IMG/VR virus record: IMGVR_UViG_3300042287_000536
Length of the DNA: 64,000 bases
Reading direction: 5' to 3' (one strand)
From: an uncultured virus (IMG/VR IMGVR_UViG_3300042287_000536)
Lineage: Duplodnaviria > Heunggongvirae > Uroviricota > Caudoviricetes
Both the position numbers and the translations under genes were made by a program. Under the pieces are notes generated by a model, which worked only from the letters and a program-made list of their open reading frames with translations, ran no database searches and was not told the DNA's origin. Shown here piece after piece: positions 17,692-58,644 of this stretch (its first letter is position 1; every line of letters begins with the position of its first letter).

Positions 17692-20600
17692 TTATTTTTT
17701 TAATGTACCTTGGAATGATTCAACAGCTTCTTCTGGTTTAAGATTATATCCAGAGTAACCCATCATCTTCAAGAAGTATGCCCATGACTTATTATCACCT
17801 TTATCCCATACTCCAGATTTTCTCTTAAAGTCTAACTCATCTGGATCCCAAGTTAAGAAAAACTGATTAGTAAATTTAATAACTCTTTCTAGAGTACTAG
17901 TCATTGCTGTTGGAGATCTAACAACTCTATATGCATCAGGAGGTGATATATAAGAAGATGTTTCACTCTTCATCCTTACTAACTCATACAAAGCAAAGTT
18001 ATAAGCATAATTGTCTTTTAATTCATCATCATCATCTCCCATAGAAGTAAGTATTGCTATTAAAGCTGTAGTAGTTACAATTGTTGCAAGTTCAGCTATA
18101 ACTCTTTTCATCTGAGCTTTTTGAAAAGGAGTATATGTAGACCACCCTTCAATCATGTTCCATTTAAAAGTTACTAAATCTTTGAAAAATAAATCCCAAA
18201 AAGTTCTATAGTAACCTTCAGTAAATGTACCAAGTTCTTGATCCATTGCTAAGTCATTAAATCTTCTACGGTATCCTGGTACTAAATGCTTTCTATACAT
18301 TATAGCTAATCTACTTACAGAATATTTTTGAGATGTACCTTTATCAAACTCATTATAGACACCATGCATTCTTTTATTTAAAGCATGTAAAGTATTTTGA
18401 AAGTTTTGTCTTTTTTTCTCAGAGAAGTTAGTATTTTCTGCAACACCATATGCTCCATAGAGAATATGAGCTTGTAAAAGACTTATTACTTCTCCTGTAT
18501 TTTTATCAGTAACCATTGTAGCATCCATTAAAGCACACATACCTGATACTTGAATTTCATGTTCAGCAAAAGATTGGTTAAAGAATATAGTATCTATACT
18601 CATTAATCTTAAAGCTGCAGTTCCTGTTACTTTTTTACCATACTGATCAATAAATTCTCCTTGTATGGCATCATAAAATTCAGCAAGTTGTCCTAATAAA
18701 CTAGTAGGAGTTGGTTGACCAAAGTCAGCAAGCATAGAAGGTACAGATTTCCAATAAAAACCTTTACCATTAGCTAAATTAGACTTAGCAAAAAACTGTC
18801 CAGAGTTAGCTTCAATAATCATTTGGATATTACCTTGTAAGTTATTGGCCATACCCTTTAATGCATCTAATGAAAGAGATGTTACTGCAGATATACCACT
18901 GGCTGTATTTGTAATTTTACTCATAGATAAACCAAATAACTCTTCAGCTGCTTGTGTTTCTCCATATACAATCATATCAATAAAGTCATCAACATGTTTT
19001 TGAGAATAACTTTCTCCATTTTTTTTAAGAAATCTTACAATGTTTTGCTTATTAGCAATTTGATTCATTATAGGCTCTCCTTTGCTGTTAGTTTCAGCAA
19101 CAGTTCTAGCTCCAACAACTGTTTTAAACAAAGATATCTCAGCATTTACTTCATTTAAAGCATGAAATCTATTAGACATTGCACTAAATAATAATACAGA
19201 TTTACCTAAATCAAGACTTATATCTTCAGGAGCTAAACTTTTTTGAGTATAATGAACAGGTATAAACTTAACACCTAAGTTTGATGCATTAGCTGTACCA
19301 TATTGTTGTGAATCTTGAGCTCTAATTTGTGTAGCATCTTTAAAGTTCTCAGTAACTGTATCAATAAGACCATTAGATAAAACTCTTTCATAATCTTCTT
19401 TAGGAACATCAGGTAATCTGTATCCTAATTTTTGTGATTCAGGAAGAAGTTCTTGAGCTTCAAAGTAAGTTTTTAAATAAAACTGATGTAGTTTTCCTTT
19501 TTCTCCAATAGGTTTACCATTTATATCATAAAGAGCTGACCATTTTGGATTAAGATACTTTTCTGATGGCTGAGTCATTTCCCACCTATATTGAATAGTA
19601 CCATTTTTAGTTTTAAAAACTCTAGAACTATACCAGTCATCATATTCTTTTTGACTAATTAAGTTTTTTTCTAGTTCTTTTTTCTTACTAGCAATAATAG
19701 CTTCTATCTCTTCAATAGGTTTAGATTGTTTATTTTCAGAATACCATTTACCAAGTCCTTCATTATACTTATCAAGTTTCTTTTGCTCATATTCTGTAGG
19801 ATTTGCACTTAAAACAGGAGCTAAACCTCTTCTTTTTTGTTCAGCTTTTGCTGCTTTATTATAAGCAGTCATGTCATATTTTTGTACAAAATGAGGAATT
19901 CTTTTAGTAACAATTTCTCCTGTTACACTATCTGTATAACTTTCTTCTACATACTCATAAATACCTTCATTAAATTCTGCTACATTGTTTCTGCTTATTG
20001 AAGTAGAATCTGCATAATCTAAAAAGTATTTAGCCCATTCATTTTTAGTTTCAACATTCTTTACATTAGCATAAGTAAGTTGACTCTTTATAGCTTTAGC
20101 AAATAAACCTAAAGCAGCATCTTTAGAACTAATTAAAGGATCAATTAAGTAAGAAAGTACACTCTCATCAGAACTAGCTTCTTTTAAAAGCTCTATCATT
20201 GAGTCTTTATCAAGAACAAAAGATTGAAACTTATCAAGTCTTTTTTGTAAAGGTTCTATAGCTTTAAGTTTTTCAGCTTCATTTTTAGAACTATCATTTT
20301 CAATAGCTTTAATTTGTTCTTGAAGTTTAGTTACTTCAGGCATTATATCTTCTCCAATATTTTCTGATTTATAATCTAATAAAAACTCAGCTATTAAAGG
20401 TCTACCAATTTCAACAAATTGTTGATTTATATTATTTTTTATTTCAATAGCTCTTGTAAGTTTTTGAGCAGGAGTAAGTAGTGCTTCTGGAATAGAAGGA
20501 TCTACCTTTTCACTAAAGAAATCAAAAATATCTTGTTTATTAATCTCATCAAGAATAGAATAACCATTAGCAAATTCATTAATAGCAGATAACTCTTGCA

Positions 20601-21060
20601 TTAATTCTCTACTTGTTAAGTTCTTTTCATTAGCAATAATCTTAGCAAATCTATCTTTAGCAAGTTGGGATTTTTTATAAGCATCATCAATAAACATTGT
20701 TATAGACTCAACTCCTTCAAGAGCTGCAAAGTCATCAATAACCTTTTGCAATCTAGCTTGCTTTTCAGGTTGATCAGCAATCTTCTTTTTAGTTAAGATA
20801 GTGTATTGTGTAGTAAGATATACTTTAATATCATCTATTAATTTAGAAAACTTATCAGGTTTTACTTCAGGCTCTAAAGGTTCTGTTGGCCCAGGTCTTT
20901 CTGTTTCAAAAGTTTCTCCATCAACTTCTAAGTTAAACTCATCTTTTGAACCAAAACCATCAGGTTTTCTCCATTCTATAAGTGCAGCATCTCTATCACC
21001 ATTAGCATCAGCTAATGTCTTTTTCCACTCATCACTTGATTCAATTGGGCAGGCTAGCAT
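17692..21060 (-). CDS. Large virion ejection/cargo protein, 1122 aa
   Basis: Downstream of the vRNAP genes; helical, with C-terminal hydrophobic segment IAELATIVTTTALIAIL; starts MLACP. Confidence 0.7.
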   Translation of the reverse strand: MLACPIESSDEWKKTLADANGDRDAALIEWRKPDGFGSKDEFNLEVDGETFETERPGPTEPLEPEVKPDKFSKLIDDIKVYLTTQYTILTKKKIADQPEKQARLQKVIDDFAALEGVESITMFIDDAYKKSQLAKDRFAKIIANEKNLTSRELMQELSAINEFANGYSILDEINKQDIFDFFSEKVDPSIPEALLTPAQKLTRAIEIKNNINQQFVEIGRPLIAEFLLDYKSENIGEDIMPEVTKLQEQIKAIENDSSKNEAEKLKAIEPLQKRLDKFQSFVLDKDSMIELLKEASSDESVLSYLIDPLISSKDAALGLFAKAIKSQLTYANVKNVETKNEWAKYFLDYADSTSISRNNVAEFNEGIYEYVEESYTDSVTGEIVTKRIPHFVQKYDMTAYNKAAKAEQKRRGLAPVLSANPTEYEQKKLDKYNEGLGKWYSENKQSKPIEEIEAIIASKKKELEKNLISQKEYDDWYSSRVFKTKNGTIQYRWEMTQPSEKYLNPKWSALYDINGKPIGEKGKLHQFYLKTYFEAQELLPESQKLGYRLPDVPKEDYERVLSNGLIDTVTENFKDATQIRAQDSQQYGTANASNLGVKFIPVHYTQKSLAPEDISLDLGKSVLLFSAMSNRFHALNEVNAEISLFKTVVGARTVAETNSKGEPIMNQIANKQNIVRFLKKNGESYSQKHVDDFIDMIVYGETQAAEELFGLSMSKITNTASGISAVTSLSLDALKGMANNLQGNIQMIIEANSGQFFAKSNLANGKGFYWKSVPSMLADFGQPTPTSLLGQLAEFYDAIQGEFIDQYGKKVTGTAALRLMSIDTIFFNQSFAEHEIQVSGMCALMDATMVTDKNTGEVISLLQAHILYGAYGVAENTNFSEKKRQNFQNTLHALNKRMHGVYNEFDKGTSQKYSVSRLAIMYRKHLVPGYRRRFNDLAMDQELGTFTEGYYRTFWDLFFKDLVTFKWNMIEGWSTYTPFQKAQMKRVIAELATIVTTTALIAILTSMGDDDDELKDNYAYNFALYELVRMKSETSSYISPPDAYRVVRSPTAMTSTLERVIKFTNQFFLTWDPDELDFKRKSGVWDKGDNKSWAYFLKMMGYSGYNLKPEEAVESFQGTLKK

Positions 21061-23402
21061 ATCAGTTTTAATAATTTGTTAATAATCTTATTTAATTCTT
21101 CTTGGGTTGTTGCAGCCTCTAAATTACTAATAATATCATTTGCATCATAACCTTTTTCAGCTAAAATTTCATCAAGTCTATATTTTTCTATACTATTGTT
21201 TACAGAATCTATTGTCTCAGCTTGTTCAGCAACATTGATAGGTGTAACTATAACATCTCCTTCTTCCATATAACCTGTTTTAAGGTTTACATCTCTTAAG
21301 TATATTTCTTTAGTGTCTTTATCTACTAAATTATATAGATTTTTCTTATTAAGTTTCCAATTATGAACATTATTTATACCTGTAAAAAACTCAGATGGTA
21401 ATATATTATTGTTCATCATAACAGCATTATTAAACTTATCAGTTTCTGCTTTAGGAACAAGAGGCTCACTATCTTTACCAGGAATTGCTATTCCAAAGTT
21501 TTTAATAACTTTTTTAGTAATATAATCATTTATCTCCTCATCTATCTCTTGAATATTCTCATTAGGTACAAACCTGTTATAATCCCATATGTCTTTATAT
21601 CTTGCAAATTTTAATTTAGCAGCAAAGATATCTTTCCAATTAGCTAATTTAATAGAAACTTTATCAGAAGTAACAAATTCAAAGGCTTCATTTTTATTTG
21701 ATTTTTGGTAATCTTCATAGCTAAAAAAGTCAATAACTTTACCAGTTACACCATTTTCCTTTTCAACCATTTTATTCTTAACCTCATCAAACTCTAAAGC
21801 ATAAGTACCTACAGTTTCCTCAGTTTTTTTATCTACAACACTATAAGAATCTATAATAATTTTATCACCATATTTTTTGGCCTCATAACCTTTAATTTCA
21901 TAACCTTCTGGAGCTATTAAATAACTATCAGTAGTATAGCCTCCTTTTACATCTTGAATGTCTCTGACAAAAATAGCATCAGGATACACTTCTTTAAAAA
22001 TTTTATCTGTCTCTTCTCTAGAGAAAGGGCTTACCCAATCAATATCATGTAAAGGGTTCTCATTTGGTCTTAATATAGTACCCTGTTCTGATAAAGCTGT
22101 AGATCCTGTAAGAATAAAACCTTTTTGTGAAAGCTTATATATAATTTTTTTACCAAACTCATCTTTTAATAAAGCTTGTTTAATGGATACAGGTTTGGTA
22201 ATCTTACCTTCAGCTCCTGGTTTATATATACTTGCTGTAATAAAGTTTTTATTTTGCTTAACTACATTATCTACAATAATACCAATGTTTTTATTAATAG
22301 TAGTAACATCAGATTTCTTAAATAACCCAAAGAACTTACTAATAATCTTCTTGATTTTACTTACTAATGACTTATCATTTGAAATATCATATCTACCTTG
22401 TAGTTCATTAGCAATTAGAATACCTATTCTTTTAAAATAGTCTTGATCTTTTAATAAATCACTATAATTATTAGTAGTAACATAATCACCTCTATCTAAG
22501 AATTCTTCTAAGTTTTGAGTATCAGTACTTAAATTTTCAAACTCATTCTCAATATAGTTATTAACTTGAAAAACATTTTTATTTTTAGATACTCTATCTA
22601 CATACAACTCATTATATAACTCTTCATCAATATCATAAGGATTAGTAGATCTTTCAGATATACCTTTTATTATGTTAGGTATATTCTCTGCACTAGGAAC
22701 AAAGAATTTCTTATATGTTAAGCCTAAGTTTTTAATTTTAGCCTCATTTAAAGGACTTAATATAATTTTAGTATCACTTACTGCTTCTATTAATTTTACA
22801 AGTTCTTTACCAACATCTTCATTTTTGTTAAGCTCCATAGATGCATCCATAGTATTCATATCTAAACCTGTTATATTCTTAACAGCTTTAAATAATAAAT
22901 CATCCATATCAACAAACTTGTTAGGATTTTTTTTAGCCAAAACACTTTTACCTAAACCTGATGCTACATAGTATATAGCACTCTTTTTTATCTTTAGTTT
23001 AGCATCATTCTTTGCAAAGTCTAATATAATGTCTTTTACAAGACCATTATGTTTCATCATGTAAGCAATGAATTCACCAGCTATTTCTGGCAAGTTTTTC
23101 CTGTCTTTAACAAAGGCAATCTTAGATAGAATGTCAGCATAACCTACTTCATCAATATTTAACTTATCTTTTACTTCATTGATATCTTTTACAGTGATAC
23201 CAAATTGAGCAAGATAGTTTTCAAATATTTTAGATACATCATTGCCAGCATTTTTAATAAGAGCTTTATCATAAGAAGCCTCAGCTTTATTTACAGGTTC
23301 ACCTTCAGACTGTTTATCAAACTCAATCTCAGCTAATAAAGGATTTTTAACTTTTTTAAGTAAAATCTTAAATAAAGAATCATTGGGATTTACACAGCTC
23401 AT
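21054..23402 (-). CDS. Multidomain ejection protein with P-loop kinase-like and nucleotidyltransferase-like domains
   Basis: IYYVASGLGKS...FVDMDDLL; GFILTGSTAL..QG...LHDIDWV...IDFF; starts MSC, ends LIC. Confidence 0.65.
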   Translation of the reverse strand: MSCVNPNDSLFKILLKKVKNPLLAEIEFDKQSEGEPVNKAEASYDKALIKNAGNDVSKIFENYLAQFGITVKDINEVKDKLNIDEVGYADILSKIAFVKDRKNLPEIAGEFIAYMMKHNGLVKDIILDFAKNDAKLKIKKSAIYYVASGLGKSVLAKKNPNKFVDMDDLLFKAVKNITGLDMNTMDASMELNKNEDVGKELVKLIEAVSDTKIILSPLNEAKIKNLGLTYKKFFVPSAENIPNIIKGISERSTNPYDIDEELYNELYVDRVSKNKNVFQVNNYIENEFENLSTDTQNLEEFLDRGDYVTTNNYSDLLKDQDYFKRIGILIANELQGRYDISNDKSLVSKIKKIISKFFGLFKKSDVTTINKNIGIIVDNVVKQNKNFITASIYKPGAEGKITKPVSIKQALLKDEFGKKIIYKLSQKGFILTGSTALSEQGTILRPNENPLHDIDWVSPFSREETDKIFKEVYPDAIFVRDIQDVKGGYTTDSYLIAPEGYEIKGYEAKKYGDKIIIDSYSVVDKKTEETVGTYALEFDEVKNKMVEKENGVTGKVIDFFSYEDYQKSNKNEAFEFVTSDKVSIKLANWKDIFAAKLKFARYKDIWDYNRFVPNENIQEIDEEINDYITKKVIKNFGIAIPGKDSEPLVPKAETDKFNNAVMMNNNILPSEFFTGINNVHNWKLNKKNLYNLVDKDTKEIYLRDVNLKTGYMEEGDVIVTPINVAEQAETIDSVNNSIEKYRLDEILAEKGYDANDIISNLEAATTQEELNKIINKLLKLIC

Positions 23403-23403
23403 A

Positions 23404-26400
23404 TTAGTAACATTCTTTTAGTTTATTAATTATAGTAACAGGGTTCTTAGTTTTATCATTCAAAGCTTCATTGATATACTCATAAGCTTCTTGTTGAGTT
23501 ACACCATGTTTGGCTGCTAAGTTAGTTAAAATTTCTCTCTTTCTATCTATTGTAAATTCAGGCATAGTTTTAAAGTCTAATGCTTCAGTAGATGGTTGAG
23601 TAGTACTTTCAGGATTAATTCCCCAATAGTTATACCCTTTAGAAGTTTGACCTGTTGGAACTCCTAATTCAGCTTGTACTAAAGCTTCTCCTTGTTTATT
23701 CCATGATCTATTAGCATCAGAAGTTGAGTCCATTATAATAGTACCACCTGCTTCAATTATTTCTCTAGCTTGTAAATAAGTATCTTCTATCTGTTTATCT
23801 GTAGCTTTATTATTACCATTTACAGAAACAAAAGCTATTACTTGTGGGCCAACTTTAATTTCATCATTAACAGGAATACCTTGTTTTTTAGCATCTTGTA
23901 AATAAGCATAACTTGATGTTCCAGAATTAGGATAAGAAATAAAAGCATTTGCTAAATTAGCTTTACCTTGATCTTTACCTTTTTTATCTATAGAAAGTTT
24001 AAAACCTTTAGGTATAACACTACTAGATGGTTGAGTAGCATCAATCTTTTTCATTAAAGGAGTAAGTAACTTATCATACTTAAGATAAATTTCTTTTCTC
24101 TTTTCTTGATCTGCTGGGTTAGTCATAGCAGCATACGCTGCTTTTTCTTTTGCTCTAAGTCTATCAACTTCTTTTTCTTCAGCAGATTGTTGAGTAGTTG
24201 TACTCTTTTCAGTTACAACTGGACTAATTACTGGTTTAGTACTCATGTCAGTACTAGTACTGAAGAAGTTCTTAGGAGAATCTCCAAAGCCTTCAGCAAA
24301 TATTACTACATCATTACCTTGACTTAATATTCTGTCAATAGCAATATCAATATTTTTTTGAGCAGCTTTAATTTCTTCAGGAGTTAAGTCCTTACCAACC
24401 TTGTGTAAGTCAGCTGGAGAAAGTAAGAATATAACATTAGGGTTTGCTTTTATTAATTTTTCAACCCTATCCTTAGTAACTGGATACTCTCTACCATTCT
24501 GAACATAAGTACTAGTTATATTAAATATTCCTGTAGGAATTTCAGTATCTCCTGTTACTGGCTTAATGAATGGTTGTTCATAGATGTTATTTTCAGCATC
24601 AGGTAAGTTAGAAATATCAACTTTTAAATTAGCTCCTCTGTTTCTTAATTTTCCTTGAGATGCACTATTCTCCATTTCAAACAGTTTCTTTAAACCACCA
24701 AAAATTGTATCAGGATCAGTTGTTTCAATCTTTTTAAGAAACTTCTCAGAAGCTTTTTCCATTATTTCTTGATACTTTTCATAAGGCATCATACTAGATA
24801 AAGAGAACTTACTTGAATCCATACCTGATTGTAAGAAAGCATAGATAGGAAGATTCTCAAAAAACTTACTTATGTAAGCATTAGCTTTACCATCACTGTA
24901 TTTTTTACTAGTTAATTTAGGTTCACCAACATTAGATAAATTATTCCATTGGGTATAGTATTCACTAATTAAACCTTCATCAAGATTCTCATAATTTTTT
25001 AATTGGAAGTTTAACACATCTCTATAAGCAGCTATGTTAGGTATACCTTGAGGCATAAACTGTTTTAACATAGAGTATTTAGTAAGATCACTCATCTCAG
25101 GATAGTTTGTAATGATATCCATCAACTCTCTAGCTATAGTATTGTCTCCAGATCTAAATAACTGCCATATGTTGTAAGTATTAGTTAAAGCTTTATTAGC
25201 TAACATATCTTCATAGGTAAGATTATTTAATCTATTAACATATTCTTCATTAGTTTCTTCATCTGTTTGTTTATACTCTAAAGAACCTGAATCTTTTAAT
25301 CTTTTTCTTCTGGTAAGAAACTCATTTGTATCAATAACATCAGCAAGAGTAGTTCTCTTTCTTAAGTATTCTCTCTCTAACCCAAACTCAATAAAATCAG
25401 TTCTTAGTTTTTCATTAGGTACAAAATACATTTGTTGATCTTTCCCCATTTTTACTAATCTTGGAAATGCTTTACCATTAATAGGAGTTAAACCTCTATT
25501 CTTATAAGAGTTTTCATCAGTACTAGTAGCTAAGTATAAACCAGCATCAAAATCCTGATTAAGTTGTTCTAAAAACTTAGGATTAATAACTTCATTTTTA
25601 TATTCAGTATCTCCAGATTTATAAACTCTTAACTCATTAGCAAAAATGTACTGAGAAATAAAGTTTTTAAACTTAGTAATATAAGTTTCACTGTCATATC
25701 CTGTAGCTTTTTTTGCTTGAGACATAGCAGTTCTATTTTTAAAAGTTTTAATAAGAAAGTTATTTAACTGAGCATCATCTCTTAACTTAAATAATCTACT
25801 AAACAATCTTCTAGCAAAATCTTGTATAAAATATGGAGATATAATACTATCTGTAGATAGTTTTTGTATTGGACCAGGATCTAAAGTTGGTGTATTTGCA
25901 AGACCAGCAACTTCTTCAATTTTTGCTTGAGCTGAGTATTGATCACCACTAGGTTTAGTATCAGGATTCATTGCTTTTTTCATTGCATCATAATCCTCAA
26001 TAATTTTTTCTACATACAAGTACTCTAAGAATGCAGCTATTTGATTAGGATCTTTATAGTTTAACTTTGATTTTACTAATCCTTCAAGAGTTTCTTTAGT
26101 GAAAGTTTCAGGTTTCTTAAAATAGTTTAAAGCTGTTGTAATATTATAAATACTATCTTTTGGCAAGTCCTTATAACCATTTTTAGAGAGAATTTCAGCT
26201 TCAGCTTCTGGTAAATATTCTGAAATAGTCTTTAACATATTAGGAGCTACATCATACTGAGTACCAAAATTAAACAACTTTGATAAAGTAGCTTTAGCCT
26301 TAGCTTTGTCTTTAACATACTGTCTAGTCATTGGATTAGATACAAAGTATGCTATAGTTTCAATAGGAACACCAGCCTCTAATAAGAATAAGAACTTAGG

Positions 26401-29400: not shown

Positions 29401-32400
29401 AGTCATATCATCTTTAGTATGATCAAATTGGAAGCCATCTCCTTGTAATAATAAAGTAGTTTCAGTCTTATGTATAAAGTTATTAAACATATAAGACTTT
29501 ATAGCTGCTTTTTTAATATTTAAATCTACATCTTCAGGAGTAGCCCCATAAATATTATTTTTTTCTTTAGTATTATTAACTAAGTCTTTTAATATAAGTT
29601 CTTTTAATATTGCAGGTAAAGGTTGATCAACTCCAAAAATTGGATCAAATAAATCTTTATTATAACTCTCTTCTAGTTTATCAAAGAATTTAATAATATT
29701 ATCATTAAGTTGTTTTTTTAATGCAGGATTATCATTTAATACAATATATAAATCACCTACTTTATTTAAACTTTCAAATAGTTCTTCAGACTTTAAAGCC
29801 TCTTTAAGACCAGGAGAACCATCAAGTATCTCATCAAAAATATCAAATTCAGTACCTCTTTCAAATCCTGTAATATTGTTATAGTATTCAGGATCAGCTT
29901 TAACCATTGCAATTCTTCTTATCTCACCCTCTAATTTAGGATACAACATATCTAATATTTTTTGCATTGGGTTATATCCCATTATAGATCTACCTGAAGC
30001 ATCTTTCATAAAAGCTACAGTGTCTACATATAAACCTTTGTTTATTTTTTCATCATAGGTATCAATAACATTAAGCTTAACTCCAAAGTTTGAACTTTTA
30101 TCACCAGCTTGAATTCCATCCATGTAACCTCCACCAAGAGTAGAAATAAATACAGATAACACTTTATCTAAAAAGCCCATCTTAGCACTTGTAACACCAT
30201 CACTAGCATAAGTTTCATCTATGTAACTAATACCACTAAGATCACGGTAGTTAATATCATTATCTTTAATCTTAATACCAGTAACACTAGAAAATAAAGA
30301 TTTTAGTATGATTGAACCTTTTGTCAAAGGATTACTCTTAGGATTAAGAAAGTTCATGTGAACAAGTTCAGGATTATCTGAATATAAATCTCCTTGTTCA
30401 TTAGCTTTCTTAAGACCATTTATTTTTTGAGTATCAGTACTATTAAGTGCAAATAAAGACTTTAACTTTTTAGCAGCATTAAATCTCATAGAGTTTGCAT
30501 ATTCAGTAGAATAAGAAGCTTCTGTTTCAGCTAACTTGTTTACAGCAAAAGCATTTGCAGGAAGTTTTGTACCATTGCTTAATGTTCTAGCTTTACCTAA
30601 ATAAACAATAATGTTATCAATATTTACTTTATCCTTGTCTTTTGTAGCTAAATCATTACTATCTTGAGTTTGTCCAATAGCATCTGCAATAAAATCTATA
30701 TCATTAGGTACAAGACTATCTTTAATTTCTGACATGTCAGATAAGAATAAGCCAATACTATTTAAGAAAGGAATATAGTTTTCTTTTGAAACACTGTAAA
30801 CATTTTTATTTTCATTGTTTACACCTTTAATAAGATATCTATTAACTACAGCTTCTAAATCTATATAGTTAAGTTGATCTTTTTTATATGTAAAACTATC
30901 AATTTCTTTTTGTTGAAAAGCTAAAGGCCAATCAGTATTTACAATTCCTAAATAATCTGCAGTTGTTTTACCAACTCTTATATCAGTTGGTTTATTAGAA
31001 TATTCTTGAACAACAGTAGAAACTATATCAACTTTATGTAAGTTTGTAGACTGTACAAACTTCATCCACAAAGCTCCAATGTCACTACCTTCTTTAAACA
31101 TTTTGGTTAATGAGTCAGATGGAGAAAGTAATTCACCTTCTTCTGTTTGTTGCGAGTATATCTTACCTAACAATTGTGTAAACAAAGGAGATACTTTTGA
31201 TGCATTTTTAAGGTTGTTATATAAACCTAATGGTGAAGTTTCACCAGAAGCTTTATCCATTAAGACTCTCCAAAAAGGTAAGAACTCAATTGGTTCAGGA
31301 AAACCTAATTCATTTAGTTCAGGCTCTCCATCTTTAGTTTGTTTATTTAAACTTTTTATTACATATAATACTAAGTCATCAGCTAATTTTTCTGAAGCAA
31401 CATCATTACTAGAAGCATCAAGACTTGTAGCTAACTCTTGTTGAGCAGTGTCACTGGTCTCTTCATAGTCATCACTATCTTTTTCATCTACTATAGGTTT
31501 GAATGTAGATAATAAATCTTTAAATGTACTGTTGTTTTTATGAAAAGAAACAACTGAAACATTAGCAGTTTGACCAGCTAAGGCTTTACCAATATCTCCA
31601 AATACTTCATCTCTAACAGCTCTTGTTAATAAGTTAATCTTATCATTAATGATAGTTAATGCTTGTTCATCAGTAGGTGCAAGCTTAGATCTCTCATCTG
31701 TTAACTGAATTATTTTATCATTAAGTCTATTCTTTGCTCTATTATAAATATTAGTAAGTGACTTTCTACTTGAAAATACTTTTGTTACTGCACTAAAGTG
31801 ACCTTTTCCTACTTGTTCATTTACATATTCTGATAATATACCATCTATAGTTCTAGTTAATAGTAAAGCTTCAGATACACTTAAGTCATTTTCAGCATTG
31901 TCTGTTACAATACCTCCACTATTTAATGAACCAAACTCAGCATTTTTTAGATTAGCTGAATATGGTAATAAGTCTTCAGGAGACTTAGCTGAATATAAAG
32001 CATTAAACATATCACCTAAAACACCTTCTGAACTTGTGTTAGAGTATACATCAGAATTTCCTACTAGAGCTTTTAAAGCCTTCCATATTCTATCAAAGAT
32101 TCTACCTAAGGCAGTCTTTGCTTTAGAGTCAGTTTTAAACTTACCATTATTCATAGCATACTTTCTAAACTCTTCAGCTATAAATTCTTCTATTAATAAT
32201 CTATCTTGTCTCTTGTTTACATCAAGATCTTTAAAGTTTAAAGTAACCATTCTATAAGAAACACCACCACCTGGTTCTACAAATTTCTTAACAACATTAA
32301 AACTGCCTGGAAGTTTTGATACAGGTTTGTATAACAACTCAGTTCTTTCATCTTTAGTTAAATACACTTGACTAAAAGCATGCCAAGCCTCATGATAAAC

Positions 32401-34425
32401 TTGAGTAAAACTAGCTCCTTTAAATAAAGTAATAGTTGAATTACTAAAATTTGCCCATGCATCAGAGTTTACAACATTTCTTAATAGGGATAGACTAAAA
32501 AGAGGTTTTCCAGCACTATCCACTTCTTTAGCCAATGCTGATTCATTTCTCCACCAGTTTTCAGCTCTAGCATCTTGTTTAGCTGTAGCAGAGTTTTGTA
32601 TTAACTTAGAAGATTTTAAATCATCCAAGTCTTCTTCTGCTTCAGTATTGGTTATTGGTATATTTTGAGCTACAGTATTATTTCTAGTTTCAACAACTTG
32701 TTGTTTAACTTCAGCTTGAGTTAACTCAGATTCAAAGTTTAAATAACCATTTACAACCATTGGTAAACCTGTATTCTTATCTCTTACAACTCTAGGTGTA
32801 AACTTGCTGAATATAAATGGTTTATAAGCTAATTCATTTTTAGAAACTATCTTATACCCAATAGCTGTATCTTCAATAGTGTATTTAGTGTATTGTTGTT
32901 TTGTATAAAGTTTATTATTAAAATGAATATATACACTATTAGTAAAGAAGTCTTTAAGCATTTGCTTAGATACCTCTTTATTTTCTAAAGGCACACTTAC
33001 ATTATTAAGATTAATATAAAGCTTTTTATTATTATCAGTTTTTATACCAATAACATAAGGTAAAAGTTTTGCATCAGATTCAGCAGCATCTCTATAAAGA
33101 TTTATAAACTGACTAACATATTGTTCTTTTTCTACATCAGTTAATCCAATATCTTCAGTAAGAACAGTTATAAGATGATCCATTAGTTCAGGATCCTGAT
33201 TACCAAGAGTTGTTGAATTCTTTAATGTTATTAAATTTTCTGCAGTATAAAACTTAACTGCTGGTAAAGTTCTTGTAACACCTTTTAATACCTCTCTAAC
33301 AAATACTATATTTGGGTCAAAAGAATCTTGATTAAATTCTGATAAGGTAGCTCCTCCTTCTTTTTGTTCTTTCTCTGTTAAAATATCTAATTTTTGAGCA
33401 ACTCCAACTGACCCTCCAGTTAAGTTAACTAAAACTGATTCTGTATCTTCTAATTTCTTTTTAAGTTTATTAGGAGCTTCAGCATCTTTTTTAACTTTTT
33501 CATTAATTTCTTGCTCTTGTTCAGGAGTTATGTTTTTAAATTTAGAAGCTAGACTAGCTTTAATGTTTTTAGTATTAGTAACACTTACTGTTTTTAATGC
33601 AAAGTAAATAGGTTTACCTGTATTAATATTAGCAATTTTATGATTTTCATCAAAGTACATAATATTACCTTGATTATCAGTTAAAACAAGCATAACTACA
33701 TTTCTAGGTAACCAGTCTTCTCTACCAGCTCTTTTTTTTCCTGGAATGTTTTTTTCATACATTACTTTTCCTCTAAAACCAGTTTTACCATCATATTCAA
33801 GTTCTGTAAAATCTTGGTCAGCACTTGTTCTAGCTAGTAAAATCTTAGCTAAACCATCTTGATAGAATGCTTTATCTGCATCTCTTGCTGTTCTACTAGG
33901 GATAGTTTTACCATTTACTTTTTCTTCTTCAGCTGTTTGTTGAGTTGTTAAATTATATCCATCAACAGATAAAATATTATCTATTGCAAGCTCTTCTGAA
34001 CCTTCTACTTTAAAATAAATCTTATCTGGATTTGTAGCTTGCTGAGCTATTACTTTTTCTATTTCTTCAATACTTGTATTCTCTATACCTAATAAAGTAG
34101 AGATAGCAGCCATTTTATCTTCAGCATCTTCTAAAGCAGTTATGTCTTTAATTAACTGAGTTGAATCATAACCTCTTTTAACAAGTTCTTTTTCACTAAG
34201 TTCAGGATTATTCTTTATGGTATCATAGATAATTTGAGGCACATGATATGCAACACCTAATGATTGTTGAATGTCATTTTTTGCAGCTGCTATATCTTTT
34301 TGAATAGTATCAATTATATCTTTATAATTAAACTTTTCTTCATTTAAAAGTTGCCCTTCAATTAAAAGGTTTACATAATTTTCAAGATTCTCTTTTAAAT
34401 TATTTTTACTTAAATCACATACCAT
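23404..34425 (-). CDS. Virion-packaged single-chain double-psi-beta-barrel RNA polymerase (crAss-like), with N-terminal zincin-like domain
   Basis: RIPVQG...KSGTDFDVDK (DFDVD at 27526-27540), DADGQ, STQLRK, NGFVDAGKD; HEAWH at 32380-32394 with EEFIAEEF. Confidence 0.9.
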   Translation of the reverse strand: MVCDLSKNNLKENLENYVNLLIEGQLLNEEKFNYKDIIDTIQKDIAAAKNDIQQSLGVAYHVPQIIYDTIKNNPELSEKELVKRGYDSTQLIKDITALEDAEDKMAAISTLLGIENTSIEEIEKVIAQQATNPDKIYFKVEGSEELAIDNILSVDGYNLTTQQTAEEEKVNGKTIPSRTARDADKAFYQDGLAKILLARTSADQDFTELEYDGKTGFRGKVMYEKNIPGKKRAGREDWLPRNVVMLVLTDNQGNIMYFDENHKIANINTGKPIYFALKTVSVTNTKNIKASLASKFKNITPEQEQEINEKVKKDAEAPNKLKKKLEDTESVLVNLTGGSVGVAQKLDILTEKEQKEGGATLSEFNQDSFDPNIVFVREVLKGVTRTLPAVKFYTAENLITLKNSTTLGNQDPELMDHLITVLTEDIGLTDVEKEQYVSQFINLYRDAAESDAKLLPYVIGIKTDNNKKLYINLNNVSVPLENKEVSKQMLKDFFTNSVYIHFNNKLYTKQQYTKYTIEDTAIGYKIVSKNELAYKPFIFSKFTPRVVRDKNTGLPMVVNGYLNFESELTQAEVKQQVVETRNNTVAQNIPITNTEAEEDLDDLKSSKLIQNSATAKQDARAENWWRNESALAKEVDSAGKPLFSLSLLRNVVNSDAWANFSNSTITLFKGASFTQVYHEAWHAFSQVYLTKDERTELLYKPVSKLPGSFNVVKKFVEPGGGVSYRMVTLNFKDLDVNKRQDRLLIEEFIAEEFRKYAMNNGKFKTDSKAKTALGRIFDRIWKALKALVGNSDVYSNTSSEGVLGDMFNALYSAKSPEDLLPYSANLKNAEFGSLNSGGIVTDNAENDLSVSEALLLTRTIDGILSEYVNEQVGKGHFSAVTKVFSSRKSLTNIYNRAKNRLNDKIIQLTDERSKLAPTDEQALTIINDKINLLTRAVRDEVFGDIGKALAGQTANVSVVSFHKNNSTFKDLLSTFKPIVDEKDSDDYEETSDTAQQELATSLDASSNDVASEKLADDLVLYVIKSLNKQTKDGEPELNELGFPEPIEFLPFWRVLMDKASGETSPLGLYNNLKNASKVSPLFTQLLGKIYSQQTEEGELLSPSDSLTKMFKEGSDIGALWMKFVQSTNLHKVDIVSTVVQEYSNKPTDIRVGKTTADYLGIVNTDWPLAFQQKEIDSFTYKKDQLNYIDLEAVVNRYLIKGVNNENKNVYSVSKENYIPFLNSIGLFLSDMSEIKDSLVPNDIDFIADAIGQTQDSNDLATKDKDKVNIDNIIVYLGKARTLSNGTKLPANAFAVNKLAETEASYSTEYANSMRFNAAKKLKSLFALNSTDTQKINGLKKANEQGDLYSDNPELVHMNFLNPKSNPLTKGSIILKSLFSSVTGIKIKDNDINYRDLSGISYIDETYASDGVTSAKMGFLDKVLSVFISTLGGGYMDGIQAGDKSSNFGVKLNVIDTYDEKINKGLYVDTVAFMKDASGRSIMGYNPMQKILDMLYPKLEGEIRRIAMVKADPEYYNNITGFERGTEFDIFDEILDGSPGLKEALKSEELFESLNKVGDLYIVLNDNPALKKQLNDNIIKFFDKLEESYNKDLFDPIFGVDQPLPAILKELILKDLVNNTKEKNNIYGATPEDVDLNIKKAAIKSYMFNNFIHKTETTLLLQGDGFQFDHTKDDMTKRGPGSQSGGTIFPVDLLTKIFIDAKVGRPYEQKLIADKIIAEKEVRTYGPTLNSAIIQESEVTSVYFNMYRDLFKRDYIDKGLTDEDEINAALYGVDPDTGEIGNAEVDAEGNYSNVFKGGKMKAFINIQDADGQALITFDTYRILRQAEGNWSNEQEALYFKVINGETITATELTNMFPVYKLQYDGPLATEVGRFPIQAFHKYSLFPLIPSVIKDFPANDVHKAMISQNIDYITFTSGSKRSSIKSSPESKGDSIYEGDTSNLKADFTFTPNTIYIAYLKNQTSVNTYFKQQSTFSTQLRKLITSLLYAYGVPTDYIKANNFNSPEEAQTAWDKVKYKRLESKFHDYTEEFKESIDDYVKFKKEELLEELGWTEDDLYAEKVDDAKIKSMLVVLNKEFKRQGFSAHERELLESSSNIDKLDLSVSPLAARFERMIMAMVNNRLVKTKLKGEPLVEVSSAFMQNTKLRNATAEEKAKYKDDFATNGLKPYAVDGINNSIGFMFKRALGKMDENLFQTDYFILNEAGEYVNSGQPIAIYKDEDQEELDFDASFIRLNEMLRVDAWRANDENNKKLRLTGVRIPVQGHNSMEFGEVAEFLRPEAGPIIIIPAEIVAKSGTDFDVDKMTTYMPFLTRSGKLMRKYDKEGIEAERKELEQKFEDLKITKGAIEILKNKKQAQWLDINLKLNDFRKAVSIRARGLNIDADLLNSLTSSKSKEIIKIMSDPNVENLVKEFFPKASLIYNYSIKGITLEDVDAVDGALRSLYKNKSELSKVYTELSDLNDNENNLGGGLQNKLIQDMVNILELPELAASLMSPNDTNLVKPYADKIKGYIQEADNETDFTKSLMTGNKMYKKGISTTKIYTETYNIKKHQENFSSKDSLGIAAVDNYINNLLNMAGAKMQKSVNVTAKVAETKRSFNKKTNKWDTKTVWANQVVEIPLDLNLAHNKLDGAISLSHIMDKEGKNSIADIINQMMNGFVDAGKDAWVAYLQGNPEVVPKFLFLLEAGVPIETIAYFVSNPMTRQYVKDKAKAKATLSKLFNFGTQYDVAPNMLKTISEYLPEAEAEILSKNGYKDLPKDSIYNITTALNYFKKPETFTKETLEGLVKSKLNYKDPNQIAAFLEYLYVEKIIEDYDAMKKAMNPDTKPSGDQYSAQAKIEEVAGLANTPTLDPGPIQKLSTDSIISPYFIQDFARRLFSRLFKLRDDAQLNNFLIKTFKNRTAMSQAKKATGYDSETYITKFKNFISQYIFANELRVYKSGDTEYKNEVINPKFLEQLNQDFDAGLYLATSTDENSYKNRGLTPINGKAFPRLVKMGKDQQMYFVPNEKLRTDFIEFGLEREYLRKRTTLADVIDTNEFLTRRKRLKDSGSLEYKQTDEETNEEYVNRLNNLTYEDMLANKALTNTYNIWQLFRSGDNTIARELMDIITNYPEMSDLTKYSMLKQFMPQGIPNIAAYRDVLNFQLKNYENLDEGLISEYYTQWNNLSNVGEPKLTSKKYSDGKANAYISKFFENLPIYAFLQSGMDSSKFSLSSMMPYEKYQEIMEKASEKFLKKIETTDPDTIFGGLKKLFEMENSASQGKLRNRGANLKVDISNLPDAENNIYEQPFIKPVTGDTEIPTGIFNITSTYVQNGREYPVTKDRVEKLIKANPNVIFLLSPADLHKVGKDLTPEEIKAAQKNIDIAIDRILSQGNDVVIFAEGFGDSPKNFFSTSTDMSTKPVISPVVTEKSTTTQQSAEEKEVDRLRAKEKAAYAAMTNPADQEKRKEIYLKYDKLLTPLMKKIDATQPSSSVIPKGFKLSIDKKGKDQGKANLANAFISYPNSGTSSYAYLQDAKKQGIPVNDEIKVGPQVIAFVSVNGNNKATDKQIEDTYLQAREIIEAGGTIIMDSTSDANRSWNKQGEALVQAELGVPTGQTSKGYNYWGINPESTTQPSTEALDFKTMPEFTIDRKREILTNLAAKHGVTQQEAYEYINEALNDKTKNPVTIINKLKECY
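23589..24197 (-). repeat. Three dispersed 15-nt direct repeats encoding TQPS/TQQS linkers
   Basis: tagatggttgagtag at 23589-23603 and 24024-24038 (identical); cagattgttgagtag at 24183-24197 (13/15). Confidence 0.7.
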
Positions 34426-34426
34426 A

Positions 34427-37400
34427 TTAACAAAGGTTTTCTATAAGATTTGTTTTTCCTGTTTTTAATCTTTTTGCATAATCTTCTTTATCTGCAGCTT
34501 TGGTTTTTTTAAACTCTTTAGGCTCTTCAGAAATAAGTTTTTCATTAGCTTTAATAATTTCATTTTCCTCTACAGTTGATTCCTCAATACCTGGTTGTAC
34601 AATTCTAAGATCTCTAACTAGATCATCTTCATTTATTGTTACCTTTGTACCAAGTGCACTTTTCAAAGTTACTGAATTTGTTCCAACTTTCTCAATTTTA
34701 TACTGAATATTATCATAAATAACTTCAAATTTATTAGTTTGAGCAACCTTTAAACTTTTTAAATTTAAATTCTCATTTAACTGTTGACTAGTTACTTTTG
34801 TTGGCCCTACTTTTGAAACAACTACTTCTCCTGTTGGAACTGTAACTGTCTCAACTTCAGCAACATCTCTAGCTGCAAGTTTAGCTTCTTTAATTCTTGA
34901 TTGAATTCTAGCATTCTTTCTACTGATAGTAACAGGATATTCTTTTTGTTTACTAGCAACAACTTCTTTAGCATTAAGATTCATTGTAGTAGTAGTAAAC
35001 TTATTTCCTATATTGTTTTCTTTATAGTTATCAATTAGTTCACTTAAGTATCTTACTTGATCTTGATATTTTAATAAAGCAGCTAGTAATTGAGCTTGCC
35101 TTTCTTCCTCTTTAGTTTTTACTACTTCAAGAAACTCAGCTGAATTTATGTTATTTAATACTTCATTTTGAAGACTCTCAATCTTATTTTTTATTGTAGG
35201 ATATTGAAAATTTTCATACTCATTATCTGATATAAAAGTCTTAAGATTTTTATCAGTTTGAAATAACAAACTAACATGTTCTTTAATATATCTTATTGAA
35301 TCAGCAATAGCTTTTCTAACAGCTATAAGTAATTTACCTATAGTATTTATCTTAGAGTTTATCTTATCTCTTCTAGCAATTAACTCATCTCTTGTATAAG
35401 TAGTAAGAGTAGGGTCACTAATCAATGAAGAATAGTATTGAGCTTGTTTTTGTAAGTCTTGTTGTACAGCTTCAACATCAGATAAATCTTCTTCAAGTTC
35501 TTTTACTCTATCTGTAATAGCATTTAACAACTGAAACTCTGCTGTACGGGCAGCTTTAAGTTCAGCTATCTTCTCTTGAACTTTAACACCTTTTGCAGTT
35601 TTCTTAGAGCTTTTAGACTTAATAATATTATTTAAACTTTTAATCTGATCATCTATATTTTTAAGATTGTTTTGAATACTTTCAGTACTTGTATCTAATA
35701 TACCATCTAAGTAAGCAAGAGTATCATTAATCTCAATAGCATCTAAACCTAAAGCTTCAGCTTTTTTCTCTAGTAACTCTATTCTTTTTTCAATAAATTC
35801 TTTTCTAGTCTGTAAAGTAGAAGAGCCCGGCAATCCAAATCTTAAAGCTTTTTCTTCAGCAGGAGTAAGACTCTCTCTAGGTTGCATTAACAATCTTTTA
35901 GTCTCAGCTTCAATAGCTTGTTCTTTAGCTTCTTCTTCAGTCTTTGGTGCTTCTTTTCTTGTAGGACTTAATGAAGAAATTATTTTTTCACCTTGATCTC
36001 TTAAAGGAAGTAATCTAGCATCTTTAATTTGATCTAAAGGAGTTACTCTTACTCCAGGTAATAGATTTAATTCACTAGTTACAACATCACCTGGTTGATA
36101 TATTACTTCAATAGGCATTACAGCAAGAGTTTTTGCTCTTAAGTTGTGAGTATTATTTAATAAAATTCTATATAATGATAATTGTTTTTGATGTTTTACT
36201 TTATTAGAATCTTTACCTTCTTCAAAAATATTATCATATACTGTTTTTCCTTCATTTATACCACTAAAATAAACATTAGTAAACTGATTACCTCTCATGG
36301 ATTTCATATCATATATACGGATATCACCACTCTCAGTATAGGTAAGTAAATCTACAGTACCAGCAACACCTAAGTTATCATCATATAATAAAATATCATT
36401 TGCTAGAACTTTTTCACCTCTAGCATCCATTTTATCTTTAATTTGTTGTAACTCTTTTACAAAGGCTTGAACCTCTTCTAAAGAAGATACATCATATGTT
36501 GATAAATCTTTAAGTTCTCCATTAAAGAAATCTCTTACTAGAACATCTATTTTTGTACCAATAATCTGAGAAGAAGCTGTTGTAAGCTTTTTTGTTAAAG
36601 GTTTTCCTTTATAGTTTAATCCAATTAATCTTTGTTTGTAATCTTCTATATCTTCACCTTTTTCAATACCATCTTTAAAATCATTTTTAGATTTTTCATC
36701 AGCAATGTAGTTAGTAACTCTCTCATACTTTTTACCAGTTTTAGTATTTACATAATGTGTACCATCTTCAGATAGTTTAATAAAATCTTTGTTAGCTATT
36801 ATGTCATTAATAGTACTTTGTAATGTTTTTACTGGTCTATTTTTAAGCTCATCTTCTTTTTCTTTAGCAGCAATAGCTGTAAAGTTGCTGAATAATTTTA
36901 AAGCAATATCAAATTGAGGACCTGCAGTTACTTTATTACCTTGAGCATCCATAAAGTATGTAGCTACTGGCATTTCTATATCATTATCTAAAGCTTCAAC
37001 ATATTTTTCTATTAATTCATTAGGGATATTTAAACCTGAGTCTACAGTAACTAAATTTAATATACCATTGATACTGTTTAATCTATTAATTAACTTTTGA
37101 TTTTCTTCAATAATACCTTCTTTATTATTAAGAATTTCACTATAAGCATCATTTAATCTAGTGTGTAATTTAAAAAAGTTTTGAGGAGCCATTAATACAT
37201 TAATACTTTCAGCAAGACCTTTCATATCATCTTTAAGACTCATATGATCTTTAACTACACTATAAGCTTTTTCTATATCTTCATTAAATACAATATGATC
37301 ATTCTTTTTAGCTAAGAATTTAACATGCTCCATAAAAGCTTTCTTAGCTATTTCATCTTTAGCTTCTTTTTCTTCAGGAGTTTTTGCTTCTTTAACAGCT

Positions 37401-42748: not shown

Positions 42749-44053
42749 TTAACTTACTGCTTGTGGATTATTATTATAACCTTCATAAGCTCCAGAAGCT
42801 GGATCTGCAGCTGCTCCTTTACCTAACATGTCTCTAAATATTTTTTCTTGTACATCTGGATTAGGAGAATATTTTTGTGCTTTTTTCCATAATGCATCAT
42901 AATGATCATATCTAGTTGCAGGATCTATTTTATTAGGATCTGGTCTAAAATAAGCAAAACCTCCACTAGAAGGATCAACAGCATACTGAGGATATAAACT
43001 ATTTAAGTTAGCTGTGTTAGCTCTATTAGTAATAGCATCCATATAAGATTGTCTTATATTCTGTCTAGCTTGTGCTTTAGAATTATCAAACTGTTGATTA
43101 GCTACTGTATATTTATCATATAATTGTGTATCAAGATTAGCTTTATTTTGAGAAGCTTGATTTAAAATACCTGCTTGTTGTTGAGACAATTGATTAGCTG
43201 TTTGTACATTTAAGTTATTATATCTTCCCATTGTATCAGCAGCAGCTTTAGCCATTTGACCTTGAGCAACTGTATTAGCAGCAGCTTGTTGTTGTGGATT
43301 AGTAAATGCTGCAGAATTTTGCATAGCCATGTTAGCCATTTCAGTATTAGCAGCAAGTTCTCTAGTAGGATCATAGAATGTTGCTTCTGGTAATCTTACT
43401 TGAGGAGTAGCTTGCCAAGGTAAATACTTTTTAAGTCTAGCCATATCTCCTACAGCACCAAATGTTTTAATAGTATCTTGTAACCACCAAGGAGCATTTT
43501 GATTTTCACCATAAGGAATAGGAGTATGTTGTTCAATAGGTTTTCTATCTGCATCTTTAGGTTTTTCAGCAGCAGGAGGAATAACTTTATCTTCTTCTGG
43601 AGCTGTAAGTTTTTCCATAATCTTATCCCATCTTTCACCAAGAAAATTATCATCAGGTCTATTAGCATAAGGCATTCCTAAATCTGTATGTATTTGTAAT
43701 ACTCTATCTTTAAATTTAGGATCATTAAGTAAATAGTTTTGAAACTCTTTATTTTGACCAGCTACTGTTCTGCTTTTAGGTTTAAACCCTGTTTCTGCAG
43801 CCCATTTTTCCCACTGAGCTTTATCATATTTTGAATGATGAAGTTTATTACTACCATACCCATAAGGTTCTATTAATAAAGGAACATCACCTGTAGCAGC
43901 TGCAGCTTTAGCAAGTCTTCCTTCAGCTCCAGTTTTATCAACACCTTGATCTAATTTAGGATCAGTAGAACGTCTTTTTTTTTCTACAAGATTATTATCA
44001 TAAAGAATAAATTCATTACCTACTTTATTCCATCCTGGTTTTATATTTGCCAT
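42749..44053 (-). CDS. Virion cargo protein, Gln/Asn/Ala-rich helical C-terminal half
   Basis: 434 aa; low-complexity Q/A/N helices typical of pilot/ejection proteins. Confidence 0.55.
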   Translation of the reverse strand: MANIKPGWNKVGNEFILYDNNLVEKKRRSTDPKLDQGVDKTGAEGRLAKAAAATGDVPLLIEPYGYGSNKLHHSKYDKAQWEKWAAETGFKPKSRTVAGQNKEFQNYLLNDPKFKDRVLQIHTDLGMPYANRPDDNFLGERWDKIMEKLTAPEEDKVIPPAAEKPKDADRKPIEQHTPIPYGENQNAPWWLQDTIKTFGAVGDMARLKKYLPWQATPQVRLPEATFYDPTRELAANTEMANMAMQNSAAFTNPQQQAAANTVAQGQMAKAAADTMGRYNNLNVQTANQLSQQQAGILNQASQNKANLDTQLYDKYTVANQQFDNSKAQARQNIRQSYMDAITNRANTANLNSLYPQYAVDPSSGGFAYFRPDPNKIDPATRYDHYDALWKKAQKYSPNPDVQEKIFRDMLGKGAAADPASGAYEGYNNNPQAVS

Positions 44054-44058
44054 AGTTA

Positions 44059-45906: not shown

Positions 45907-45915
45907 AATATTTGT

Positions 45916-48618: not shown

Positions 48619-48622
48619 AATA

Positions 48623-48654
48623 CAAATATACAAAAATTAATACATATTATCAAG
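48623..48654 (-). promoter_or_regulatory. Bacteroidota-type promoter, 4 nt before the ATG
   Basis: Minus strand CTTG (48651-48654), 20-nt spacer, TATATTTG (48623-48630), then TATT-ATG. Confidence 0.7.
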
Positions 48655-57205: not shown

Positions 57206-57210
57206 GACTT

Positions 57211-57882: not shown

Positions 57883-57888
57883 GTTGTA

Positions 57889-58485: not shown

Positions 58486-58493
58486 ATCACCTA

Positions 58494-58524: not shown

Positions 58525-58563
58525 GATAAACTTTTATTATCTGTTATGCAACTACTATATAGT

Positions 58564-58593: not shown

Positions 58594-58644
58594 CTCACTT
58601 GTTAGATCACGTTTAAACCAACAAACCGTGATATTACAATATTT

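Follow-up and report, generated by a model that had tools for sequence, protein, structure and literature searches.

The stretch of DNA analysed here (the window, 64,000 nucleotides of the uncultured virus IMGVR_UViG_3300042287_000536) has a replication module on its plus strand and, on its minus strand, structural genes together with four consecutive genes at positions 17692-39898 that encode proteins of 1823, 3673, 782 and 1122 amino acids (aa), referred to below as members 1 to 4 of a chain, or as p1823, p3673, p782 and p1122 (Table 1). On the evidence of sequence homology this is a virion RNA polymerase cargo block of the crAss-like type, with the gene order gp47, gp50, gp49: BLASTP aligned member 1 with gp47 of phage crAss001 (E = 3e-14), member 2 with gp50 (E = 1e-8; the match surrounds an SG[ST]DFDVDK motif common to both) and member 4 with gp49 (E = 3e-53). 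The DFDxD polymerase motif is named in the available part of the Drobysheva preprint (10.1101/2020.03.07.982082). By homology with crAss001 and phi14:2, these proteins are most likely packaged in the particle and ejected from it.

The feature that sets the block apart is the placement of its cysteines (Cys), the counts and positions of which are as an initial annotation had claimed. There are seven in 7400 aa (0.095%), while all open reading frames (ORFs) of the window together contain 236 in 20,701 aa (1.14%). Each of the six termini at the junctions has one of the seven within four residues, and the two outer ends have none. Member 1 has a Cys-free N-terminus and a single Cys as its last residue; member 2 contains only Cys3 and the penultimate Cys3672 (...KECY); member 3 contains only Cys3 and Cys782; and member 4 combines Cys4 and an internal Cys842 with a Cys-free C-terminus, no Cys other than the N-terminal one being present in 99 of its 113 close homologues. 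Random placement would put at least six of seven Cys within four residues of any of the eight termini with a probability of P = 4.6e-14. The stop and start codons are arranged as TAA-T-ATG at two junctions and as an ATGCTAG overlap at the third, again as first annotated. The 925-aa protein encoded upstream of the chain lacks a terminal Cys and is, on that ground, outside it.

Structural modelling of the last junction agrees with the proposal that each bridged end consists of a terminal helix and a Cys. AlphaFold2 placed a helix at residues 135-149 of the last 150 aa of p782, followed by Cys150 (predicted local distance difference test, pLDDT, 89); in the first 150 aa of p1122 (pLDDT 79), Cys4 lies in an extended stretch and a helix follows at residues 10-18. 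Prediction of the complex of these two fragments from 48-row alignments scored 0.22, where the mark was 0.32, and speaks neither for nor against an interaction. A Foldseek search of the PDB with the model of the C-terminal domain gave no match at E <= 0.001. The IINKL sequence that was said to be shared by two of the C-termini is present (TIINKLKECY and KIINKLLKLIC), but they resemble each other only marginally (BLASTP E = 0.05), and relatives do not share the motif as a rule. The comparison of p1823 with p782 gave nothing. An interpretation of the two IINKL ends as paralogous docking helices is at most tentative.

Table 1. Positions of the chain members, their cysteine codons and the adjoining upstream gene in the window
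Feature	Position	Strand	Remark
Member 1, 1823 aa	34427-39898	minus	homologue of crAss001 gp47 and phi14:2 gp67
Cys1823 codon (TGT), C-terminal residue of member 1	34430-34432	minus	
Member 2, 3673 aa, putative virion RNA polymerase	23404-34425	minus	homologue of crAss001 gp50
Cys3 codon of member 2	34417-34419	minus	
DFDVD, residues 2296-2300 of member 2	27526-27540	minus	two-barrel RNA polymerase catalytic motif type
Cys3672 codon of member 2	23410-23412	minus	
Member 3, 782 aa	21054-23402	minus	conserved module
Cys3 codon of member 3	23394-23396	minus	
Cys782 codon (TGC), last residue of member 3	21057-21059	minus	overlaps the ATG of member 4 (ATGCTAG)
Member 4, 1122 aa, last of the chain	17692-21060	minus	homologue of crAss001 gp49 and phi14:2 gp65
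Cys4 codon of member 4 (MLAC-P)	21049-21051	minus	invariant column C4 in the last-protein profile (A2) and in the alignment of the downstream side of the last junction (A4)
Cys842 codon of member 4	18535-18537	minus	sole internal Cys of the block; not conserved
925-aa protein upstream of the chain	39900-42677	minus	no terminal Cys; internal Cys128 and Cys134 only

Gene breaks and fusions among relatives

The association between Cys and gene breaks was studied in relatives that divide the same proteins differently. In ten IMG/VR loci with approximately 55% identity to the 782-aa protein and differing gene boundaries (L001-L010), all ten junctions are paired, with a Cys 1-4 residues from the upstream C-terminus and another at residue 3-4 of the downstream protein. 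A profile constructed from 58 homologues of the last protein (A2) retrieved 79 viral loci, along which genes were walked by taking the first ATG from at most 25 nucleotides before the upstream stop, a rule that ignores Cys. Of the 109 junctions called in this way, 104 have both Cys, none has Cys on one side only, and five have neither. These five are artefacts, in the form of spurious out-of-frame ORFs of 48 or 84 aa within a long ORF, so that every real junction is paired (104/104, or 67/67 in the 48 loci that remain after dereplication at 90% identity). On the upstream side, 70 of the 104 junctions have Cys as the last residue, and 19, 12 and 3 have it 2, 3 or 4 from the end, respectively; the downstream Cys is residue 3, 4, 5 or 6 at 39, 31, 15 and 19. 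Elsewhere in the proteins of the 79 loci Cys is almost absent (35 internal Cys in 291,105 residues, or 0.012%), and none of the 77 complete last proteins has one in its final 10 residues.

Individual chains illustrate the range of arrangements. In G002, proteins of 2382 aa (Cys2382 only), 4075 aa (Cys10, counted in the longest ORF, and Cys4073) and 1953 aa (Cys3 only) follow one another. The complete genome G003 encodes 4685 aa (Cys4684 only) and 1581 aa (Cys3 only), and hence has 2 Cys in 6266 residues, both at its single junction, while the chain of G004 consists of 4711 and 2233 aa. Four chain members are in view in L110. Some chains include short link proteins (240-310 aa), whose only two Cys are residue 3 and the final residue.

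Homologues of each position in the chain were also counted separately. First-protein homologues have a Cys in their last five residues in 86 of 89 cases and an N-terminal one in 1/89, with only three internal Cys in 168,699 aa. Among the 45 middle-protein homologues, an N-terminal Cys is found in 38, a C-terminal Cys in 44 and both in 37; the exceptions are fragments, one protein named 'partial' at NCBI, or proteins of 3436-4481 aa, which are probably first-plus-middle fusions. All 113 close homologues of the last protein have the N-terminal Cys and none has a C-terminal one. The same pattern was recovered when p1122 was compared with 1.84 billion cluster representatives and the best 150 matches were analysed: of the 121 among these that are 1000-3000 aa long and start with M, 117 have a Cys within the first eight residues and none within the last ten.

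Alignments of the upstream (A3) and downstream (A4) sides of the last junction have a mean identity of 30-39%, and the only invariant columns are P37 and C150 in A3, the latter corresponding to Cys782, and C4 and F123 in A4. In 44 of 48 cases at this junction the upstream protein ends with its Cys, and in 45 of 48 the downstream protein begins M-x-x-C-P; at the inner junctions, by contrast, 16 of 19 cases have one to three residues after the upstream Cys, and the downstream motif is M-[SAG]-C-[IVK]. Distinct motif pairs for each class of junction are consistent with cognate docking, which shared descent would explain equally well.

Where the break is missing, so are the terminal Cys. Among the best 150 matches of the cluster-representative survey there are 13 single proteins of 3953-5388 aa, none of which has a terminal Cys (0/13); nine are wholly Cys-free, and together they hold 10 Cys in 62,765 residues. 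BLASTP resolved them into collinear parts resembling gp47/gp67, gp50/gp66 (with DFD[IV]D) and gp49/gp65, and the first-protein part is found at the N-terminal end of nine of the 13, and partly in one more. As the giants are collinear with gp47-gp50-gp49, the order of the chain deduced from Cys is the domain order of a natural fusion. The same contrast can be seen at a single position, where the polypeptide of L079 and L072 runs on without Cys and L075 is broken, with ...KCKL facing MSC.... The comparative check that had been suggested, that terminal Cys should occur only at junctions and be gone in fusions, has thus been passed on hundreds of homologues.

The 782-aa protein provides a further illustration, because it is a module that moves. 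Its central approximately 600 aa are 51-60% identical among relatives, far above the conservation of its neighbours. It is free-standing in the window, forms the C-terminal end of the polymerase protein in G002, lies inside the 4685-aa protein of G003, before DFDVD, and is in the N-terminal part of the last protein in G004, G005, L004, L006 and L010. Despite these moves, the Cys pairs are present only at the actual gene breaks. The four-member chain with a free-standing module is specific to the window. The consensus of the module (A1) includes GST..L.EQGT..RP.EN.LHDIDWVS, in which we presume a resemblance to the G[GS]...D.D motif of nucleotidyltransferases, although Pfam gave nothing.

The rule also holds in each of the 14 annotated genomes that were examined. 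Of these, 12 belong to four families of Crassvirales: Steigviridae (crAss001, phi14:2, DAC15 and IAS virus), Intestiviridae (crAss002, cr11_1, cr3_1 and p-crAssphage, in which gp45 ends ...SFSCM and gp44 begins MSC...), Suoliviridae (cr1_1, cr118_1 and cr109_1) and Crevaviridae (cr127_1). The others are the unclassified Leptolyngbya phage Lbo-JY46, with 1552 aa (Cys1552 only) followed by 2748 aa (Cys4 only), and the Cellulophaga phage phi17:2, which is not a member of the Crassvirales and has ...GFMC, then Cys4 and Cys516, then a 119-aa gene, then Cys3. Three of these phages, crAss001, DAC15 and IAS virus, encode their gp47-type protein on the strand opposite to the other two genes, and still its C-terminal Cys and the N-terminal Cys of its partner are kept, which places the signal at the level of protein. 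The Cys rule is conserved, strictly paired, lost in fusions and independent of gene adjacency.

Interpretation and comparison with known systems

Two of the chains with which the window can be compared, both from cultured phages, are homologous and run in the same order. In phi14:2, gp67-gp66-gp65 carry Cys1797, then Cys3 and Cys2179, then Cys3, amounting to 4 Cys in 5398 aa; in crAss001, gp47-gp50-gp49 carry Cys2339, then Cys5, Cys1334 and Cys2404, then Cys5. The chain of the window differs from both in having four members, including the free-standing 782-aa module. As far as the available text of PMC10172136 goes, crAss001 gp47, gp49 and gp50 were detected in virions by mass spectrometry and assigned to a cargo zone of the capsid, must partly unfold for passage through the tail, and belong to a particle in which disulfides are reported in tail and portal-vertex proteins. 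The available part of 10.1101/2020.03.07.982082 states that the phi14:2 cargo proteins are in the virion, suggests that fused forms are cleaved, and ascribes a zincin-like protease domain to the gp65/gp49 family. Cysteines of the cargo are not mentioned in the available parts of either source.

The closest structural precedent comes from cyanophage A4, for which the accessible part of a cryo-electron microscopy study (PMC12002296, PNAS 2025) describes a disulfide, Cys1715-Cys5, between the adjacent ejection proteins gp27 and gp26, with the C-terminal helix of gp27 inserted into gp26 in the pre-ejectosome. There the bond is said to stabilise a pentameric ring that is static, and no rule following gene breaks is given in that part of the paper. 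In the genome of Anabaena phage A-4L, gp27 (1717 aa, Cys1715 only) adjoins gp26 (1114 aa, Cys5 only). The junction signature is the same, a Cys at the C-terminal end followed by one near residue 5 in otherwise Cys-free proteins, and the junctions of the window display it too; A4 differs in having a single pair, within which there is no RNA polymerase.

Other ejected proteins are poor in Cys without being paired. In the Schitoviridae (N4 and DEV), the available text of PMC11445570 describes a giant virion RNA polymerase and partners that are ejected and are almost Cys-free, the 0.00075% Cys of gp71 homologues being linked to passage of the periplasm. These N4-type proteins have no terminal Cys pairs, whereas the cargo block of the window keeps Cys at the breaks and suppresses it elsewhere; nor is Cys wholly absent here, since internal Cys amount to 0.012% in the 79 loci and terminal Cys occur at every junction. 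The N4-type polymerase is, we assume, a single polypeptide of a different fold class. The consecutive ejection proteins gp14-gp15-gp16 of T7 (NC_001604) are likewise Cys-poor but have no junction pairs, gp14 having Cys2 only (MC...) and gp15 and the first 1135 aa of gp16 none, and hence the Cys clasp is not general in the ejection proteins of podophages. Two-chain toxins held together by an interchain disulfide need reduction for their action. They offer a functional analogy only, in that the disulfide tethers a cargo chain in translocation (PMC6899712, in the part available); they are unrelated, have one bond, and their chains are cleaved from a single polypeptide, not encoded by separate genes.

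A bridge that joins each protein to the next fits the both-or-neither pairing, the Cys-free outer ends and the loss of the Cys in fusions. We consider it probable, at roughly three chances in four, that the terminal Cys form head-to-tail disulfides between proteins in the particle, a reading that draws on sequence comparison and on analogy with A4. The head-to-tail chain of the initial annotation is thus well supported, because the junction and fusion test has been passed and a disulfide of this kind exists in A4, and the bond in these particular proteins is what we infer. The four-gene block would then behave as one split polyprotein, with a pair of Cys spanning each gene break once translation is complete, one of them 1-4 residues from the upstream C-terminus and the other at residue 3-6 of the downstream protein, giving a linear, unbranched concatemer of about 7400 residues. 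The near-absence of other Cys would keep this thread free from wrong cross-links. It may leave via the tail as one partly unfolded thread. Reduction of the links would then take place in the cytoplasm of the host, setting the polymerase free and perhaps activating it. Packaging in fixed stoichiometry, threading out in sequence and release by reduction, all proposed in the initial annotation, may form part of such a scheme.

A more far-reaching version can be put forward only tentatively, and we would not expect it to hold in full. According to this, crAss-like phages and at least one unrelated genus of Cellulophaga phages would carry a split-polyprotein cargo in which a Cys pair replaces the peptide bond at each cut, so that two to at least four (probably five) proteins are rejoined into one unbranched thread of 5,000-8,400 residues whose parts pass the tail in a set sequence, with thiol reductases of the host, or of the phage, cutting the thread and thereby switching on the polymerase. 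If this were true, each junction class having its own motif pair would provide cognate docking, and hence the fixed order.

Bridging of neighbours could also be achieved by different chemistry, with a metal ion (Zn, Cu or Fe) held between the paired Cys and the topology of the chain unchanged. Thiolates would in that case stay reduced in the cytoplasm during assembly, and strict pairing suits any bridging chemistry; however, each junction supplies two thiols only, neither terminus has a conserved His, Cys, Asp or Glu nearby in A3 and A4 that could act as a partner, and the sole solved analogue is a disulfide, which makes a metal bridge unlikely. It is a little less probable again that the Cys do not join neighbours at all, and instead form a homotypic dimer, close a protein into its own N-to-C ring or anchor it to another component of the particle. 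Middle members with Cys at both ends would allow ring closure, and the lone C-terminal Cys of gp47 in p-crAssphage could be accommodated, but neither the strict co-occurrence of partners (104 with both, none one-sided) nor the Cys-free outer ends and total loss in complete fusions would be predicted, and ring closure is impossible in the two-member chains of G003 and Lbo-JY46, which have one Cys per protein.

Separate local functions, with the position at junctions being secondary, seem improbable. A cysteine switch on a zincin-like protease, redox sensing, or a lipid or other modification after ejection might be imagined, and both the conserved Cys-Pro motif of the last protein (45/67) and the protease domain ascribed to the gp65/gp49 family (10.1101/2020.03.07.982082, available part) are in their favour. 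Such functions leave unexplained why link proteins of 240-310 aa have two Cys, why there is a Cys on both sides of each break, and why fusions that keep the same domains lose all terminal Cys. Finally, chance, shared ancestry or a constraint at the nucleotide level might be invoked in place of selection on the protein. An A-TGY-TAR overlap forces Cys or Trp as the last residue, and at 40 of the 109 called junctions there is a -7 overlap, which yields the ATG only with TGN as the final codon. Yet the 64 real junctions that have other spacings are paired without exception, the downstream Cys is left unexplained, and opposite-strand gp47-type genes still end in Cys. Both synonymous codons are used at the 67 dereplicated junctions (59 TGT and 8 TGC upstream, 47 TGT and 20 TGC downstream), the Cys columns are invariant in regions of low mean identity, the Cys-poor T7 proteins are without pairs, and the probability for the window is as given above. 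Chance and the nucleotide-level explanation were rejected on the spacings, strands, codons and this probability, and the likelihood that selection on the protein is absent altogether appears negligible.

Several observations weigh against disulfide bridging of neighbours. For the crAss-type proteins the case for a bond is indirect, and because A4 gp27 and gp26 are not detectably homologous to the crAss-type cargo proteins (no BLASTP match at E <= 0.01, and no PDB chain matched), the precedent is one of analogy. Assembly takes place in a reducing cytoplasm, and the gut hosts are anaerobes, so oxidation would have to come late or in confinement. The C-terminal Cys is absent in three of the 89 first proteins and the N-terminal Cys in four of the 121 last-protein representatives from the best 150 matches, in each case with the genomic context out of view, and four long middle-type proteins without an N-terminal Cys are only presumed to be first-plus-middle fusions. 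In the annotated genomes, crAss002 fits only if the start of gp33 is shifted 32 codons downstream, to an internal MSC; the C-terminal Cys of crAss001 gp50 sits nine residues from the end; several internal Cys are tolerated in gut crAss phages; and p-crAssphage gp47 has a lone C-terminal Cys for which there is no partner.

Two components were already established: the suppression of Cys in N4-like ejected proteins (PMC11445570) and the one terminal disulfide pair of A4 (PMC12002296), each as given in the part of the source available. The statement of the initial annotation that no description was known thus needs amending for the A4 pair, published in 2025, and stands for the crAss-wide junction rule, of which no description was found in the full-text literature on crAss, virion RNA polymerase, disulfides, and cargo or polyvalent proteins. 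What is new, as read from the genomes, is a chain of several members that includes the polymerase and tracks gene fission and fusion through four families of Crassvirales and two lineages outside them.

Crassviruses are the most abundant phages of the human gut. The polymerase-associated protein that goes into their particles, and is injected from there, comes to roughly 0.7 MDa; the structural papers leave its order and activation unexplained. A covalent end-to-end tether, if real, would explain ordered, all-or-none delivery, the purging of internal Cys and the freedom with which the genes split and fuse, and might provide a redox trigger for the first transcription. The signature can also serve as an aid to annotation, marking true starts (as in crAss002 gp33) and telling true breaks from nonsense errors (as in L011), and it gives the order of the chain members even across strands.

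Individual genomes and neighbouring genes

L011, a contig 84% identical to the window, was considered as a case of a polymerase break lacking Cys. It was rejected, as a single in-frame TAA stands where the window has GAA (Glu) and the alignment is collinear through it; the region around the TAA (14866-14939) has no flanking Cys pair. Comparison of the sequences identifies the TAA as a nonsense variant or sequencing error, not a gene break.

In crAss002 (MN917146), an ATG internal to the annotated gp33, in the region 9270-9370, gives MSCTPSNPK..., which resembles the MSCVNPND start in the window, and a 170-nucleotide spacer with a hairpin-like repeat separates gp32 from gp33. The annotated start of gp33 is, to judge from this sequence, probably 32 codons too far upstream. 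In IAS virus (NC_049978), the gp50 homologue is annotated as two genes, gp055 and gp056, which meet at ambiguous bases (X) and probably represent one gene broken by sequence ambiguity. The cargo genes of cr109_1 (NC_055892) contain 70 and 33 in-frame stops under table 11 and keep their terminal Cys pair; on this reading of the sequence, the late genes of that phage use a recoded stop codon. The gp47 of p-crAssphage (Carjivirus communis, BK010471) is an 857-aa upstream protein of the cargo type with its sole Cys two residues from the C-terminal end; gp46, the next gene, encodes no Cys, and the genome also encodes a 'putative thioredoxin', gp39. In phi17:2 (NC_021798, Lightbulbvirus, 145 kb), the Cys clasp is carried by three virion proteins, gp039, gp038 and gp036, with the 119-aa gp037 lying between the last two.

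Searches of Pfam and PHROGs with the block proteins returned nothing except phrog_298, an exonuclease-like region at residues 1014-1261 of member 1. Nothing significant in the PDB matched the sequences of p3673, p1823 and the Lbo-JY46 protein or profile A2, and therefore no sequence link to phi14:2 gp66 or A4 gp26 was established. No match to p782 or to residues 1-3000 of p3673 was obtained by tblastn against 50,697 deposited phage records, their relatives having turned up only in IMG/VR and in metagenome proteins.

Homologues of member 2 (P0211-P0250) have variable precomputed Pfam domains, namely PF08719, PF13532, PF18760, PF25176 and PF00075; one source names the PF13532 protein an AlkB-type dioxygenase, and PF00075 is named ribonuclease HI by a source. 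This variation in domain content points to exchangeable enzyme modules carried within the injected giant polymerase protein. By Cys content, the particle proteins of the window divide sharply into two classes. Adjoining the chain in the window, the minus strand encodes four particle proteins of 434-900 aa with 0-2 Cys each (42749-50988). Beyond these, at 50988-63576 on the same strand, lie fibre-like proteins that are rich in Cys, with 12-47 each, the richest having 47 Cys in 486 aa (62116-63576).

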